Below, one piece after another: positions 5,626-9,539 of a DNA stretch of 11,882 bases. Position 1 is the first letter of the stretch; each line of letters begins with the position of its first letter. The translations under genes and the position numbers were made by a program. The stretch is from a virus (Duplodnaviria; Heunggongvirae; Uroviricota; Caudoviricetes): the IMG/VR virus record IMGVR_UViG_2548876958_000016, one strand, 5' to 3'. Below the pieces are notes generated by a model. It was given only the letters and a program-made list of their open reading frames with translations, did no database searches and had not been told where the DNA came from.

Positions 5626-5898
5626 ATGGTACATGACCGCATAGCGGAGGAACTGGAGGCGAAAGGCTTTTACCGGAGGGCGGCGGCGCGATGGGGTGAA
5701 GTCATGCAGCTGGTGGAGACAGACAAGGAACGGCATCACATCACGATGCGACGGCTGGAATGTTCAAGGAAGGCACAGAGGGCACCGGAGCCGCCGGATA
5801 ATTTCGGAGACCTGAAAAAGGCAGTCGATCGCACTTATGCCGAAATGGGTATAGATGGTGCTGGTGATGAAATATGGCGCAATTACCAGGACAGCTAA
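5626..5898 (+). CDS. PerC-family transcriptional regulator-like protein (90 aa)
   Basis: SD GAGGGGG (5614-5620), 5-nt spacer, ATG 5626. Translation MVHDRIAEELEAKGFYRRAAARWGEVMQLVETDKERHHITMRRLECSRKAQ... matches the PerC-like motif (AEELEAKG-Y/W-RRAA-RW) as I recall it from prophage PerC homologues. The longer 5506 ORF in the track is an upstream extension overlapping ssb in another frame. Confidence 0.7.
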   Translation: MVHDRIAEELEAKGFYRRAAARWGEVMQLVETDKERHHITMRRLECSRKAQRAPEPPDNFGDLKKAVDRTYAEMGIDGAGDEIWRNYQDS

Positions 5899-5904
5899 TC
5901 AAAC

Positions 5905-5928
5905 AGCCGGAGAAATCCGGCTTTTTTT
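5905..5928 (+). terminator. Intrinsic terminator (copy 1 of a thrice-repeated GNRA-loop hairpin)
   Basis: AGCCGGA (5905-5911), loop GAAA, TCCGGCT (5916-5922), then a T-run ending at 5928; 6 nt after the perC-like stop. Confidence 0.7.
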
Positions 5929-6268: not shown

Positions 6269-6291
6269 AGCCGGAGCAATCCGGCTTTTTT
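6269..6291 (+). terminator. Intrinsic terminator (copy 2 of the repeated hairpin)
   Basis: AGCCGGA (6269-6275), loop GCAA, TCCGGCT (6280-6286), T-run to 6291. Confidence 0.7.
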
Positions 6292-6339: not shown

Positions 6340-6416
6340 GCATATGAGGTTTTTGGATGCACTGGCGTTCGTGATCGAGATAATCATTTCATAATTTGCA
6401 ACATAACTAAATATCA

Positions 6417-6477
6417 TTGCATAAAATGCAATTCTTATTATAATCAGGACTGGATAAACATCCAGTCCTGATTTTTT
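6417..6477 (+). promoter_or_regulatory. Candidate late (capsid-operon) promoter with a promoter-proximal hairpin plus T-run
   Basis: Perfect -10 TATAAT (6439-6444) with possible -35 TTGCAT (6417-6422, 16-bp spacer). An 11-bp inverted repeat TCAGGACTGGA/TCCAGTCCTGA (6443-6453 and 6460-6470) followed by TTTTTTT (6471-6477) lies between the -10 and the first late gene (ATG 6501). Confidence 0.45.
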
Positions 6478-6500
6478 TAGTCGAAGAGGAATTTCTTACT

Positions 6501-6707
6501 ATGGCTGAAGAGAAAAAAGGCGGTGTTTCGGTGTACATAAGCCCCGAAATCGTGGAGGTGCTCAAGCAGCGCCACAAAAAAAACTATGAAGCTGGCGTTG
6601 CGGCTGGACTGGATCCGCTGATGACGCCGGAGCCGTCGATAGGTTCACTTGTACGCTCTTATTTACTTGCGGCGCTTGGGATGCATAAAAATTATGGGGG
6701 TGAATAA
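6501..6707 (+). CDS. Small protein (68 aa), first gene of the capsid operon; possible RHH/CopG-like fold
   Basis: Translation MAEEKKGGVSVYISPEIVEVLKQRHKKNYEAGVAAGLDPLMTPEPSIGSLVRSYLLAALG...: a beta-strand (VSVYIS) followed by two helices resembles a ribbon-helix-helix, but this is tentative. Stop overlaps the capsid start (TAATG at 6705-6709). Confidence 0.5.
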   Translation: MAEEKKGGVSVYISPEIVEVLKQRHKKNYEAGVAAGLDPLMTPEPSIGSLVRSYLLAALGMHKNYGGE

Positions 6708-7762
6708 TGGCAGGCAAAGCAACGGCACTTAACACTAACCAGCTTTTCATGTACCTGAATCGCGGGGATATTGCGGATTTTAAATTCAGCCCTCTGTTTA
6801 CCACGCTGTTTTTCCCGAACGTGGCGACATTCAACACGCAGGACATCATGTTAGATAACCTGGATATTGAAGAAGTCACTATGTCGGCGTTTTGTTCGCC
6901 TATGGTTGGCAGCCAGGTTCAGCGCGATAAAGGGTACGAAACCAGCATTATCCGCCCTGGCTACATGAAGCCAAAACACGAAATCGATCCATTAAAAACA
7001 ATAATGCGCATGGCTGGAGAAGATCCGGCACAGCTTAACGATCCTACCTACCGCCGTATGCGCCTGATTACTGGCAACATGCGCCGCCAGATAAACGCCA
7101 TTAAGGCACGCGTTGAATGGCTGGCGGTGAATGCGGTAACGACCGGAAAAAACATCATTGAGGGCGAAGGCATAGAACGCTATGAAATCGACTGGAAGAT
7201 ACCGGAAAAAAACATCATAGAGCAGGCCGACGGTAAAAAATGGTCTGAGCAGGATAAAGACATACACGACCCAATATATGACATTGAACTATACGCAGAT
7301 CAGGCAGGTTGCCCCGCCAACGTCATGATTATGGGCGTTGATGTATGGCGCATGTTACGCAGCTTTAAAAAATTCCGTGAACTGTACGATCTCTCCCGTG
7401 GTTCAGAATCCGCCGCAGAGCTGGCATGTAAAAACCTGGGCGAAGTGGTGAGCTTTAAAGGCTATCTTGGTGATCTGGCCCTTATCGTCTATTCCGGCAA
7501 ATACACTGACAGCGACGGCACAGAAAAATATTTCCTTGAGCCTGATTTGCTTGTCCTGGGCAACACCAACAATAAAGGGCTGGTGGCCTATGGTGCGATT
7601 ATGGATCAGGACGCAGTAAGAACGGGGGCAACGCAAAACATGTACTACCCGAAAAACTGGATTGAGGACGGAGATCCGGCGATTGAGTACGTGCAGACGC
7701 ACAGCGCACCGCAGCCGGTTCCGGCAGATATTCGCAAATTTGTTACTGTCAAAATTGCTTAA
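6707..7762 (+). CDS. Major capsid protein, lambda gpE family (351 aa)
   Basis: SD GGGGG 6 nt upstream. Extended similarity to lambda E as I recall it: FKFSPLFTTLFF (lambda FKFDPLFLRLFF), RPGYMKPKHEIDP (TPGYVKPKHEVNP), DPTYRRMRLI (DPAYRRRRII), VSFKGYLGDLALIVYSGKY (VSYKGMYGDVAIVVYSGQY), LGNTNNKGLVAYGAIMDQDA (LGNTQARGLRTYGCIQDADA), YPKNWIEDGDPA (YPKNWVTTGDPA); length is close to lambda E (341 aa). Confidence 0.9.
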   Translation: MAGKATALNTNQLFMYLNRGDIADFKFSPLFTTLFFPNVATFNTQDIMLDNLDIEEVTMSAFCSPMVGSQVQRDKGYETSIIRPGYMKPKHEIDPLKTIMRMAGEDPAQLNDPTYRRMRLITGNMRRQINAIKARVEWLAVNAVTTGKNIIEGEGIERYEIDWKIPEKNIIEQADGKKWSEQDKDIHDPIYDIELYADQAGCPANVMIMGVDVWRMLRSFKKFRELYDLSRGSESAAELACKNLGEVVSFKGYLGDLALIVYSGKYTDSDGTEKYFLEPDLLVLGNTNNKGLVAYGAIMDQDAVRTGATQNMYYPKNWIEDGDPAIEYVQTHSAPQPVPADIRKFVTVKIA

Positions 7763-7773
7763 CGGGGGATTCT

Positions 7774-8109
7774 ATGGACACTCCATACATTGAGTTATTT
7801 GCAGGCAGTCAGCAGGTCGCCACGACGCTGGTACATTTTGCCGCTGATGCTGGCGTTATTCAGGAATTTACCCCGCTGATGCTGGCGGACAATGGCGAGT
7901 TTAAGCCGTGGGATGGTCAGGAATCTGGCAAGGCTGTTTATCTGACTTCGTATCCTGTGGACACGTCAAAGCAGAAATCAGCACAGTGTTACAAGACGGG
8001 GATATTCAATATTGCCGCCGTTAACTGGCCTGAGAGCGTCGACACCGATGCGAAAAAATGCGCCGCCTTTGCGGGTTCCGGCGTATCCGTTCAGCCGCTG
8101 GCCCGATAA
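7774..8109 (+). CDS. Head decoration protein, lambda gpD family (111 aa)
   Basis: SD GGGGGA upstream. TPLMLADNGEFKPWDGQ (lambda TPLMLDTSSRKLVAWDG), YKTGIFNIAAVNWPE (YKSGTFRYEDVLWPE), KKCAAFAGSGVSV (KKRTAFAGTAISIV); length matches gpD (110 aa). Gene order is E then D, the reverse of lambda. Confidence 0.85.
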   Translation: MDTPYIELFAGSQQVATTLVHFAADAGVIQEFTPLMLADNGEFKPWDGQESGKAVYLTSYPVDTSKQKSAQCYKTGIFNIAAVNWPESVDTDAKKCAAFAGSGVSVQPLAR

Positions 8110-8121
8110 GCAGGGGGAACG

Positions 8122-8535
8122 ATGGCAACGAATGAAAGCATCATGACGCTACCGCTGGCGAGTAAATTTAAAGCCGAAGCGCGGGCAATGGCTGACAGAG
8201 GTTTATCAACCTATGAGGCCGTATATCAACTAAACAAACTGGAAGAGCAGGACAAGCCGCGCGCTGATGCGATTATGGCGCTTCATGAGCATAAAGACTA
8301 TCAGCCGCTGTTACGTGCAATGGCAAACGTGCCATGTATTAGCGTCGATAATGCTCGTGAAATCCTGAACATGACCATAGAGCAGGAGCGCCCAAAGGTT
8401 GCACCAGAGCTTACCGCAGCCTTTGAAAACTTTATGGACATGCACAGCCCGCAAGCCGTATCAGCTGGCATGGCATACGATGGCAGAAACCAGGGCGATG
8501 ACGGCGACATCGATCGCATACTGAAAACCATCTGA
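8122..8535 (+). CDS. Hypothetical protein (137 aa), last gene of the capsid operon
   Basis: SD AGGGGGA (8112-8118), ATG 8122. Translation MATNESIMTLPLASKFKAEARAMADRGLSTYEAVYQLNKLEEQDKPRADAIMALHEHKDYQPLL... No family recognised. Its position after the capsid and decoration genes suggests a morphogenesis or packaging accessory role. Confidence 0.6.
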   Translation: MATNESIMTLPLASKFKAEARAMADRGLSTYEAVYQLNKLEEQDKPRADAIMALHEHKDYQPLLRAMANVPCISVDNAREILNMTIEQERPKVAPELTAAFENFMDMHSPQAVSAGMAYDGRNQGDDGDIDRILKTI

Positions 8536-8540
8536 GACAA

Positions 8541-8564
8541 GGCCGGAGAAATCCGGCTTTTTTT
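8541..8564 (+). terminator. Intrinsic terminator (copy 3 of the repeated hairpin)
   Basis: GCCGGA (8542-8547), loop GAAA, TCCGGC (8552-8557), T-run 8558-8564; almost base-for-base identical to copy 1. A second hairpin ACGGGTCC/GGACCCGT (8566-8573 and 8584-8591) follows and overlaps the start of cos. Confidence 0.7.
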
Positions 8565-8581
8565 ACGGGTCCTTTCCGGCA

Positions 8582-8640
8582 TATGGACCCGTTACGGGGC
8601 GGCGACCTCGCGGTTTTTCGCTATTTATGAGCCTTTTCAG
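8582..8640 (+). other. cos site 1: lambda-type cosN with a divergent cosB-side flank, oriented toward the small terminase gene
   Basis: GTTACGGGGCGGCGACCTCGCGGTTTTTCGCTATTTATGA (8591-8630) matches, with one mismatch, my recollection of the lambda cohesive-end region (GGGCGGCGACCT then CGCGGGTTTTCGCTATTTATGA); the 12-nt cohesive-end sequence sits at 8597-8608. After TTTATGA the sequence diverges from lambda cosB. Confidence 0.75.
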
Positions 8641-8741: not shown

Positions 8742-9284
8742 ATGAAATCGCACCTGATGAACAAAAAAAACATGGCGAAAAGCTGCCGTGTAAGTGCGAC
8801 AGCGTTCGACAAGTGGGGAGTGACTCCCGTTGAACGTAAAGGCCGTGAGGCGTTTTACGATGTTGCCAGCGTGATAGACAATAGGGTTAACAATGCAATT
8901 AGCCAGCTTACAAACGACAAAGGCGATATTGATGATGATGAACTCTTACGAGTCAGGATCAGATTACTGACAGCACAGGCGGAGGCGCAGGAACTTAAAA
9001 ACGAGCGCGATCGCGGTGACGTGATTGATACTGAGTTTTGCCTGTACGCGCTTTCAAAGCTGGCGAGTCAGATTTCATCAATCATGGACAGCCTCCCGCT
9101 TACTATGCAAAGGAGCTTCCCACAGATTACCCACGCCATGCTGGATAGGCTTAAAAGGGAAGTGGTTAAAGCCTGTAATGCCAGTGCCAGAGTTGCCGAC
9201 AACCTCCCACAGATACTGGCTGATTACTTGAAAGAAACAACCGGAAACGTACCGGAAAAGTTGCTACAGAAGAAAGGCGAGTAA
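8742..9284 (+). CDS. Terminase small subunit, lambda Nu1 family (180 aa; true start may be ATG 8757)
   Basis: Strong similarity to lambda Nu1 as recalled: LLTAQAEAQELKNERDRGDVIDTEFCLYALSKLASQISSIMDSLPLTMQRSFP (lambda LTRAQADAQELKNARDSAEVVETAFCTFVLSRIAGEIASILDGLPLSVQRRFP) and N-terminal MNKKNMAKS...FDKW (lambda MEVNKKQLADIFGASIRTIQNW). The C-terminal region that interacts with the large subunit in lambda looks conserved; the N-terminal DNA-recognition region is more diverged. Confidence 0.85.
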   Translation: MKSHLMNKKNMAKSCRVSATAFDKWGVTPVERKGREAFYDVASVIDNRVNNAISQLTNDKGDIDDDELLRVRIRLLTAQAEAQELKNERDRGDVIDTEFCLYALSKLASQISSIMDSLPLTMQRSFPQITHAMLDRLKREVVKACNASARVADNLPQILADYLKETTGNVPEKLLQKKGE

Positions 9285-9299
9285 CAGACGCGCAATTAT

Positions 9300-9489
9300 T
9301 GAACAAAACTGAGAAACGACATGAAAGCGTCATAAATCGCCATTTTAGATGATTACCGTGTCGTTTCTTTTTATTGTGTATCTATTTAAAAACAAATAGT
9401 TATGTTCGAGAAGTACCGACATGCTTTTTCCAGAAAAATTTTCATAAACAGATAAAAACCGCGAGGTCGCCGCCCCGTAACGGGCCATA
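9300..9489 (-). other. cos site 2: inverted lambda-like cos (cosN plus cosB-like flank) on the minus strand, pointing back toward terS
   Basis: Reverse complement of 9454-9489 equals the site-1 core. Read on the minus strand it continues GGGCGGCGACCTCGCGGTTTTTATCTGTTTATGAAAATTTTTCTGG..., then CATAACTATTTGTTTTTAAATAGATAC, AAAAGAAACGACA and GTCGTTTCTC. These resemble lambda TTTATGAAAATTTTCCGG, the I1-region CATAACTTAATGTTTTTATTTAAAATAC and R-site-like GTCGTTTCC elements, from memory. Confidence 0.75.
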
Positions 9490-9539
9490 ATTCCAGGAAG
9501 GACCCGACGACACCAGACTATCAGAGCGATGGGGGCACA

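Follow-up and report, generated by a model that had tools for sequence, protein, structure and literature searches.

Two small open reading frames (ORFs), encoding 68 and 137 amino acids, flank the capsid and decoration genes in an 11,882-nucleotide stretch of DNA (here called the window) from IMG/VR virus record IMGVR_UViG_2548876958_000016 (Caudoviricetes), and the question raised by this locus is what these two proteins do there. The window is a phage satellite, an EcCICFT073-type cos phage-inducible chromosomal island (PICI) of Escherichia coli. The interval under study is its capsid operon, which consists of a putative promoter with a palindrome and a hairpin, the 68-residue ORF (orf68), a gene for a lambda gpE-like major capsid protein, a gene for a gpD-like head decoration protein, the 137-residue ORF (orf137) and a terminator. 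The explanation that we favour, with somewhat better than even confidence, is that orf137 is the cognate scaffold of the satellite capsid protein, that orf68 is a regulator of the operon, and that the module as a whole is accessory to the satellite.

Both ORFs are conserved genes under purifying selection. They lie on the plus strand (orf68 at 6501–6707, orf137 at 8122–8535) and, as the preliminary description of this DNA stated, on either side of the capsid and decoration genes, the gpE-like gene at 6707–7762 and the gpD-like gene at 7774–8109, and the four genes are the orthologues of c1498 (orf68), c1499 (gpE-like), c1500 (gpD-like) and c1501 (orf137) of EcCICFT073, the island of E. coli CFT073. 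Each of the two ORFs has a PHROG family of its own (phrog_3255 for orf68, E 8.5e-46; phrog_1999 for orf137, E 3.7e-65), the dN/dS ratio is 0.22–0.47 for orf68, 0.29 for orf137 and below 0.5 for all four operon genes, and the 2.4-kb block that contains them is covered to at least 80% in 595 of 5,426 complete E. coli genomes. These families, the selection and the spread over complete genomes show that they are genes rather than chance ORFs. The translational linkage to the capsid genes that had been described for both applies in full to orf68, the TAA of which overlaps the capsid ATG by a single base (TAATG), an arrangement that is identical in all 77 IMG/VR loci with both ends scorable. For orf137 it amounts to tight spacing with no overlap, since its start lies 12 nt 3' of the decoration-gene stop with a GGGGGA Shine-Dalgarno sequence ahead of it.

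The 137-residue protein had been said to have no obvious lambda counterpart by eye, which is incorrect, as its counterpart is Nu3, the C-terminal part of gpC. The suggestion of a scaffolding function is upheld by homology to the scaffold region of the lambdoid Nu3/gp6 proteins (PHROG 53). orf137 matches phrog_53, which is annotated 'head maturation protease', only at its C-terminal positions 495–567 of 583 (E 1.7e-10), and tblastn against phages leads to the Gifsy-1 gpC homologue, at its C-terminal end, where residues 49–119 of orf137 align by BLASTP with residues 411–480 of 498 (E 2e-9). The Gifsy-1 record itself notes similarity to the phage 21 'Head-tail preconnector GP5 [contains scaffold GP6]'. 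Residues 416–493 of the 501-residue gpC of the CFT073 lambdoid prophage adjoining icd are 38.6% identical to orf137 (BLASTP E 3e-10); the 2018 EcCICFT073 paper names the helper as 'prophage #4', which may be the icd-adjoining prophage. Overall, the homologous stretch of orf137 comprises residues ~48–131. An hhalign comparison with phage 21-type gp6 scaffolds gave a probability of 97.4% (E 1.5e-11), and relaxed settings aligned residues 9–134 with gpC residues 358–498, which are the last ~140 of that protein. The lambda-type Nu3 was colinear with orf137 and weakly similar (E 5.5e-4, probability 30%), and direct BLASTP against lambda Nu3 was not significant, so that the homology emerges only via phage 21/Gifsy-type proteins and profiles. 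The scaffold repeat 'IMALDEAKG..LA..PGMTVE.AR.ILAA', of which phage 21-type scaffolds have three copies and lambda one, is present in orf137 once in full and once in degenerate form, and the orf137 tail motif 'F..FM..HSP..V.GG...D.D..L' is common to gpC/Nu3-type scaffolds. By homology, orf137 is a free-standing lambdoid scaffolding domain, the last ~90 residues of which represent the capsid-targeting C-terminus of gpC/Nu3 (gp5/gp6 in phage 21).

An AlphaFold2 (AF2) model of orf137 is all-helical (helices at residues 14–25, 30–52, 58–68, 75–89, 95–108 and 127–136), with pLDDT above 80 for residues 21–90 and low values in a flexible C-terminal tail. The protein is neither in frame within nor fused to an S49 prohead protease gene; it is a separate gene after the gpD-like gene, and no S49 protease domain was found in the window. 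Pfam, NCBIfam and PADLOC gave no match for orf137, and a PDB sequence search yielded nothing for orf137 or for the scaffold profile. NCBI calls the 137-residue family 'phage head-tail connector protein', a name that probably goes back to the UniProt entry for phage 21 gp5, which is titled 'Head-tail preconnector protein GP5 [contains scaffold GP6]'. A 77-residue ORF after the decoration gene of a Salmonella satellite (L007) resembles a miniature Nu3 tail by eye, and hhalign rejected this assignment. A 174-residue E. coli protein (P0111) is an apparent chimera in which an N-terminus that resembles an HK97-type prohead protease, by eye only, is joined to a Nu3/gp6-type scaffold tail, which hints that the scaffold tail is a portable capsid-targeting module.

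The orf68 protein belongs to a very small satellite-only family. No match was obtained for it in Pfam, NCBIfam, PADLOC or PDB sequence searches or by tblastn against 50,697 phage records, and a scan of genome contigs for orf68 relatives found none. A profile hidden Markov model search gave 16 matches among 1.84 billion representatives and no annotated family; those inspected, which do not include three long repeat-containing matches, are small proteins of enterobacteria. The gene is first in its operon and abuts an E-like gene in the window, in CFT073, in a Salmonella satellite, in two kinds of satellites that sit within the E or portal gene of a prophage and in 80 IMG/VR loci, and each of the six lineages examined has it at the head of the capsid operon, including one (L009) with a different capsid protein family. 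The preliminary description proposed a ribbon-helix-helix (RHH)-like pattern, and this is weakly supported. The AF2 monomer has an extended N-terminus and two helices, the best profile matches (RHH_1, E 0.15; BrnA_antitoxin, E 0.017) fall below the gathering score and concern only 3–4 of 13 family members, and Foldseek with the orf68 model returned nothing. The sub-threshold matches cover residues ~4–24, which are the predicted strand and the start of helix A. The model and profiles are no more than suggestive of an RHH fold, and an RHH-type regulator of the capsid operon is the most likely role of orf68, its main rival being a small capsid-assembly factor.

The L009 lineage was observed on a Logan contig (ERR11525680, 1–4468) and is PICI-like. 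It carries the C-terminus of a primase-replicase (pri-rep), GTGAGGAG iterons, the orf68 homologue at the head of the operon, two small ORFs, a phrog_617 capsid gene and a 644-residue tailspike-like gene. A satellite with its own tailspike would be unusual.

A conserved region at 6383–6444 (plus strand) is consistent with regulation at the head of the operon. It contains a 19-nt direct repeat (6383–6401 and 6413–6431), a TTGCAT-AAA-ATGCAA palindrome at 6417–6431 and a perfect TATAAT at 6439–6444, 16 nt past TTGCAT; its assignment as the operon promoter is our own reading of these motifs. Each satellite locus has a single copy of the pattern TTGC-N5-ATGCAA, and the window has no other, with 0.07 matches expected by chance. 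It is located at −84 or −85 from the orf68 ATG in 75 of 80 IMG/VR loci and ranges from −79 to −98 overall. We regard TTGCAT-N3-ATGCAA as a candidate operator. The TATAAT is overlapped by the 5' arm of a strong, intrinsic-terminator-like hairpin at 6442–6480 (plus strand), which has a 14-bp stem followed by a run of seven T and is located just 5' of the ribosome-binding site of orf68. Its folding energy is ∼−22 kcal/mol (z = −4.9), and 20 variants retain the stem, with G-U wobbles and a few compensatory changes. Transcripts that arrive from upstream would terminate at this hairpin, while those that start at the leader promoter would be without its 5' arm. The leader was also considered as a copy of a lambdoid pR'/qut/tR' unit read by helper Q; it shows no resemblance to the sequence that follows quuD in the CFT073 prophage, and this idea remains speculation. 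An Rfam scan of the window found nothing.

The gpE-like protein (plus strand; Pfam Phage_cap_E, E 1.7e-49) is 44% identical to lambda E, and the gpD-like protein (plus strand; Pfam HDPD, E 1.3e-17) is 36% identical to lambda D. Across 50,697 phage records the identity of the satellite E to a phage E does not exceed 48%, and in the loci of the further satellite lineages compared (from Salmonella, or nested within prophage genes) it stands at 67–68%. The decoration protein and the scaffold domain have diverged from phage proteins about as much as E. Because E is far from phage E and conserved across satellites, and D and the scaffold domain are similarly diverged, the module looks like an old, satellite-specific, co-adapted capsid/decoration/scaffold set, unlike a recent capture from a helper. 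Across lineages the conserved core is orf68-E-D, and orf137 occurs in the E. coli lineage alone. In CFT073, c1498–c1501 rise together on an upshift from 23 to 37 °C in the absence of phage induction (PMC12890032). The gpE-like protein is nearly identical to PDB 3BQW, a crystal structure deposited as 'putative capsid protein of prophage' (E 2e-228), so that a structure of this family has already been solved. Satellites with orf68-E-D and no orf137 were also seen inserted in lambdoid prophages, in the E gene for L010 and in the portal gene for L012–L014, a placement that matches the 'helper-embedded satellites' of a preprint.

Published experiments on EcCICFT073 bear directly on how much the module matters to the satellite. 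Deletion of c1499 or c1500 affected neither interference nor transfer (PMC6092414), and when the post-ori genes were expressed singly only c1503, which encodes RppA, blocked lambda (PMC6739421). The whole c1498–c1501 block has been replaced by cas9 or melA cargo in islands that still transfer with phi80 (PMC10530653, PMC10460865). Since c1498–c1501 can be replaced and only c1503 inhibits lambda, essential packaging or interference roles are unlikely, and neither helper interference nor capsid size determination as an essential function, both raised in the preliminary description, finds support in these data. The module is accessory and is not needed for helper-mediated transfer in the laboratory or for interference with lambda. 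In the EcCICFT073 papers found, no function is assigned to c1498 or c1501, which served as marker or cargo sites, and no phenotype is reported for c1499. Judging from the strain names, the marked islands used in the published size and transfer assays were c1501::tetA or c1499::cat. The statements that the island has no capsid-morphogenesis functions and yields phage-sized heads were therefore drawn from islands interrupted in the scaffold-like or the capsid gene.

The homologies, operon anatomy, conservation and selection described above are features of the sequences themselves; from them we extrapolate the binding partners, the regulation and the benefit to the satellite as follows. Lambda Nu3 is a scaffold that interacts with E, B, C and itself (PMC3224144). 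By analogy, orf137 would bind to the inside of a shell built from the satellite's own E-like protein and would help to nucleate or shape it, after which the cognate D-like protein would stabilize the shell. A lambdoid helper would supply the portal, the protease, the large terminase, the head-completion proteins and the tail. orf68 would form an RHH-type dimer on TTGCAT-N3-ATGCAA, which overlaps the −35/spacer region of the putative operon promoter, and its binding would tune expression of the operon. A more far-reaching version, in which the intact orf68-E-D-orf137 operon builds a satellite shell around the helper portal and protease, perhaps with a lower T number and room for one or two ∼11-kb genomes, appears improbable to us. 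Such a role may have been missed, because all published EcCICFT073 derivatives were marked in c1501 or in place of c1499.

Several observations weigh against our explanation. The DNA packaged by EcCICFT073 is phage-sized (PMC6092414). orf137 is absent from more divergent lineages that keep orf68-E-D (L010–L014), has been deleted in at least four close relatives and is dispensable in the laboratory, given that c1501::tetA-marked EcCICFT073 still transfers; a fold search with its model against BFVD gave no match. For orf68, no RHH profile reaches the threshold and the window protein itself gave no match, and its conserved loop 'AG.AAGLDPL...EPS' is long and atypical of RHH proteins. Co-variation between operator variants and the two orf68 alleles was looked for and is absent. 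The palindrome could equally bind AlpA or another factor, or merely hold the −35 element.

The most serious alternative concerns orf68, which might be a small capsid assembly factor, a mini-scaffold or chaperone with a helix-loop-helix like the coat-binding end of the P22 scaffold, rather than a regulator. The invariance of the one-base overlap with the capsid gene, the strong ribosome-binding site of orf68 and its presence beside E and D even in lineages that have no orf137 are what such a protein would lead one to expect, as is the helix-loop-helix of its model, and the evidence for an RHH fold is not significant. The L009 homologue, however, heads an operon with an unrelated capsid family from which it is separated by two small ORFs, the N-terminal strand-helix motif resembles RHH profiles, and a conserved palindrome is located at the orf68 promoter. 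We consider an assembly factor rather unlikely, though the closest competitor to a regulator. For orf137, a competing scaffold comparable to CpmB of the pathogenicity islands of Staphylococcus aureus (SaPIs) could bind helper E and, being shorter, lead to smaller capsids or poison helper assembly. Apart from the SaPI precedent itself, this reading draws on the C-terminal domain common to orf137 and the helper scaffold, on the unique N-terminal ∼45 residues and shorter length of orf137 (137 residues versus 199 for phage 21-type gp6), and on the use of marked islands in all published size assays. It is unlikely nevertheless: no lambda inhibition was obtained with any singly expressed post-ori gene except c1503, packaged DNA was of phage size, and a pure redirector would have no use for the E and D that the satellite encodes. 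Moreover, the 32–39% identity of orf137 to helper scaffolds mirrors that of the satellite E to phage E proteins (44–48%), which is a better fit to a cognate pair.

That the operon consists of dispensable captured phage genes in decay, an 'adaptable cargo module' in which both ORFs are functionless, is in keeping with the replacement of the entire block by cargo without loss of transfer and with the occasional natural deletion of orf137. We nevertheless hold it to be very unlikely, given that all four genes are under purifying selection and the block is intact in hundreds of genomes, that E, D and orf68 are deeply diverged from phages yet conserved from E. coli to Salmonella satellites, and that the regulatory region is conserved and the genes are co-expressed in CFT073. 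Almost no weight attaches to the remaining proposal, in which both proteins are head-completion or connector proteins of the W, FI or FII type. It has in its favour only the NCBI name of the 137-residue family, which probably stems from the phage 21 gp5 title, and no NCBIfam model matches. Homology to W, FI or FII had been named beforehand as one result that would contradict the preliminary description, and none was detected for either protein. BLASTP produced no alignment, and hhalign probabilities did not exceed 0.4% for either family.

The remainder of the window agrees with its assignment to the EcCICFT073-type Gram-negative cos PICIs, as seen in the int/alpA/pri-rep backbone, the cos sites, the capsid E/D module and the integration site. 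On the plus strand, the gene order is an integrase fragment, an AlpA-like ORF, an AAA_25 primase-replicase (pri-rep), SSB, a PerC-family gene, the capsid operon, a Nu1-like small terminase (TerS) and a 93-residue ORF, followed on the opposite strand by phoQ. In CFT073, EcCICFT073 shares the phoQ-side site and the gene order of the window satellite, and the identities between the window and CFT073 proteins are 68% for c1498, 95% for c1499, 99% for c1500, 93% for c1501 and 87% for the 93-residue protein. A relative that is near-identical over the 2.4-kb module spans ∼11.3 kb. The PerC-family transcriptional activator gene (5626–5898; Pfam E 3.9e-43) is located just 5' of the capsid operon. The operon is closed by a terminator hairpin at 8542–8568 (plus strand), formed by a GCCGGAGNAATCCGGC-T-run cassette that is also found at 5906 and 6270. 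The cassette GCCGGAGNAATCCGGCTTTTT is present three times, after the PerC gene (5906–5926), after a 74-residue ORF (6270–6290) and after orf137 (8542–8562), where none would be expected by chance.

Between orf137 and terS, and directly 5' of the latter, is a cos site (cos1, 8566–8640, plus strand) with a lambda/phage 21-like cosQ-cosN and the lambda cohesive end GGGCGGCGACCT. It was compared with the left end of lambda, and its megablast matches are cos regions of coliphages, phage 21 among them. A second cos-like site (cos2, 9430–9515, minus strand) is located in inverted orientation after terS. The two sites converge around terS and both have the exact lambda cohesive end, cos2 being closer to lambda after cosN. 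EcCICFT073 is reported to have two cos sites (PMC6739421), and the window matches this. The TerS (8742–9284, plus strand; Pfam Phage_Nu1, E 1.2e-23) is full-length (180 residues), is 35% identical to lambda Nu1 over residues 3–180, has no match to Rpp structures in the PDB and occupies the slot of the 144-residue RppA of EcCICFT073. Of the IMG/VR relatives scored, at least 30 combine this capsid operon with the TerS type and at least 18 with the RppA type.

The element and its genes were already known, and the overall result is an incremental gain in the annotation of a known system. Two annotations are new, though modest: the scaffold-domain assignment of c1501/orf137 and the regulatory region linked to orf68, neither of which was encountered in the EcCICFT073 literature found. 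Provided that c1501/orf137 is the scaffold domain that matches, the capsid, decoration and scaffold proteins of the module form a coherent kit for building a shell, and the capsid gene is no stray homologue. Given that the published 'no phenotype' and 'phage-sized capsids' results come from islands marked inside this kit, its function can be tested directly with a marker outside the operon. The misleading database name 'head-tail connector' is also corrected, and the capsid operon gains a candidate regulator in orf68 together with a candidate operator.

The closest known system is EcCICFT073 itself (Fillol-Salom 2018, 2019), with which the window shares the site and gene order, the differences being a full-length Nu1-like TerS in place of RppA and a different allele of the 68-residue protein. 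orf137 resembles lambda gpNu3 and phage 21 gp6 (PHROG 53) in its C-terminal ∼90 residues, the repeat, the tail, its helicity and its D and E neighbours. Unlike these it is encoded separately rather than nested within a protease gene and lacks an S49 domain, and compared with the phage 21 type it has ∼1.5 rather than three repeats and a unique N-terminal region of ∼45 residues. The gene order is E-D-scaffold in the satellite and C/Nu3-D-E in lambda-type phages. In its size orf68 is comparable to the RHH repressors (CopG, Arc, Mnt and the TraM N-domain; RHH_1, BrnA), having a predicted strand-helix-loop-helix order and an alternating hydrophobic/polar N-terminal strand, and it is likewise first in an operon with a promoter palindrome. 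It differs from them by a conserved insertion of ∼12 residues between the helices and has no significant profile or fold match, and its DNA binding is predicted only.

Like orf137, SaPI CpmB is a short, helical, satellite-encoded protein with the capsid-binding end of a helper scaffold, although the two are unrelated in sequence. CpmB acts on the helper capsid protein and yields small capsids, whereas the window satellite brings its own capsid and decoration proteins and small capsids were not seen for EcCICFT073. Gram-negative PICIs commonly carry capsid and decoration genes (a preprint counts a capsid gene in 21 of 29 reference elements), and the capsid-forming PICIs (cf-PICIs) such as EcCIEDL933 combine the common E. 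coli PICI backbone (int, alpA, pri-rep) with their own head shell proteins. The cf-PICIs encode a full HK97-type set (capsid, protease, portal, connectors, HNH, TerS and large terminase, TerL), while the window encodes capsid, decoration and scaffold-domain proteins and TerS only, and for this reason its satellite would need a helper portal, protease and TerL. If the intact operon did build a shell of its own, the window satellite would represent a 'partial capsid-forming' class between the classical PICIs and the cf-PICIs.

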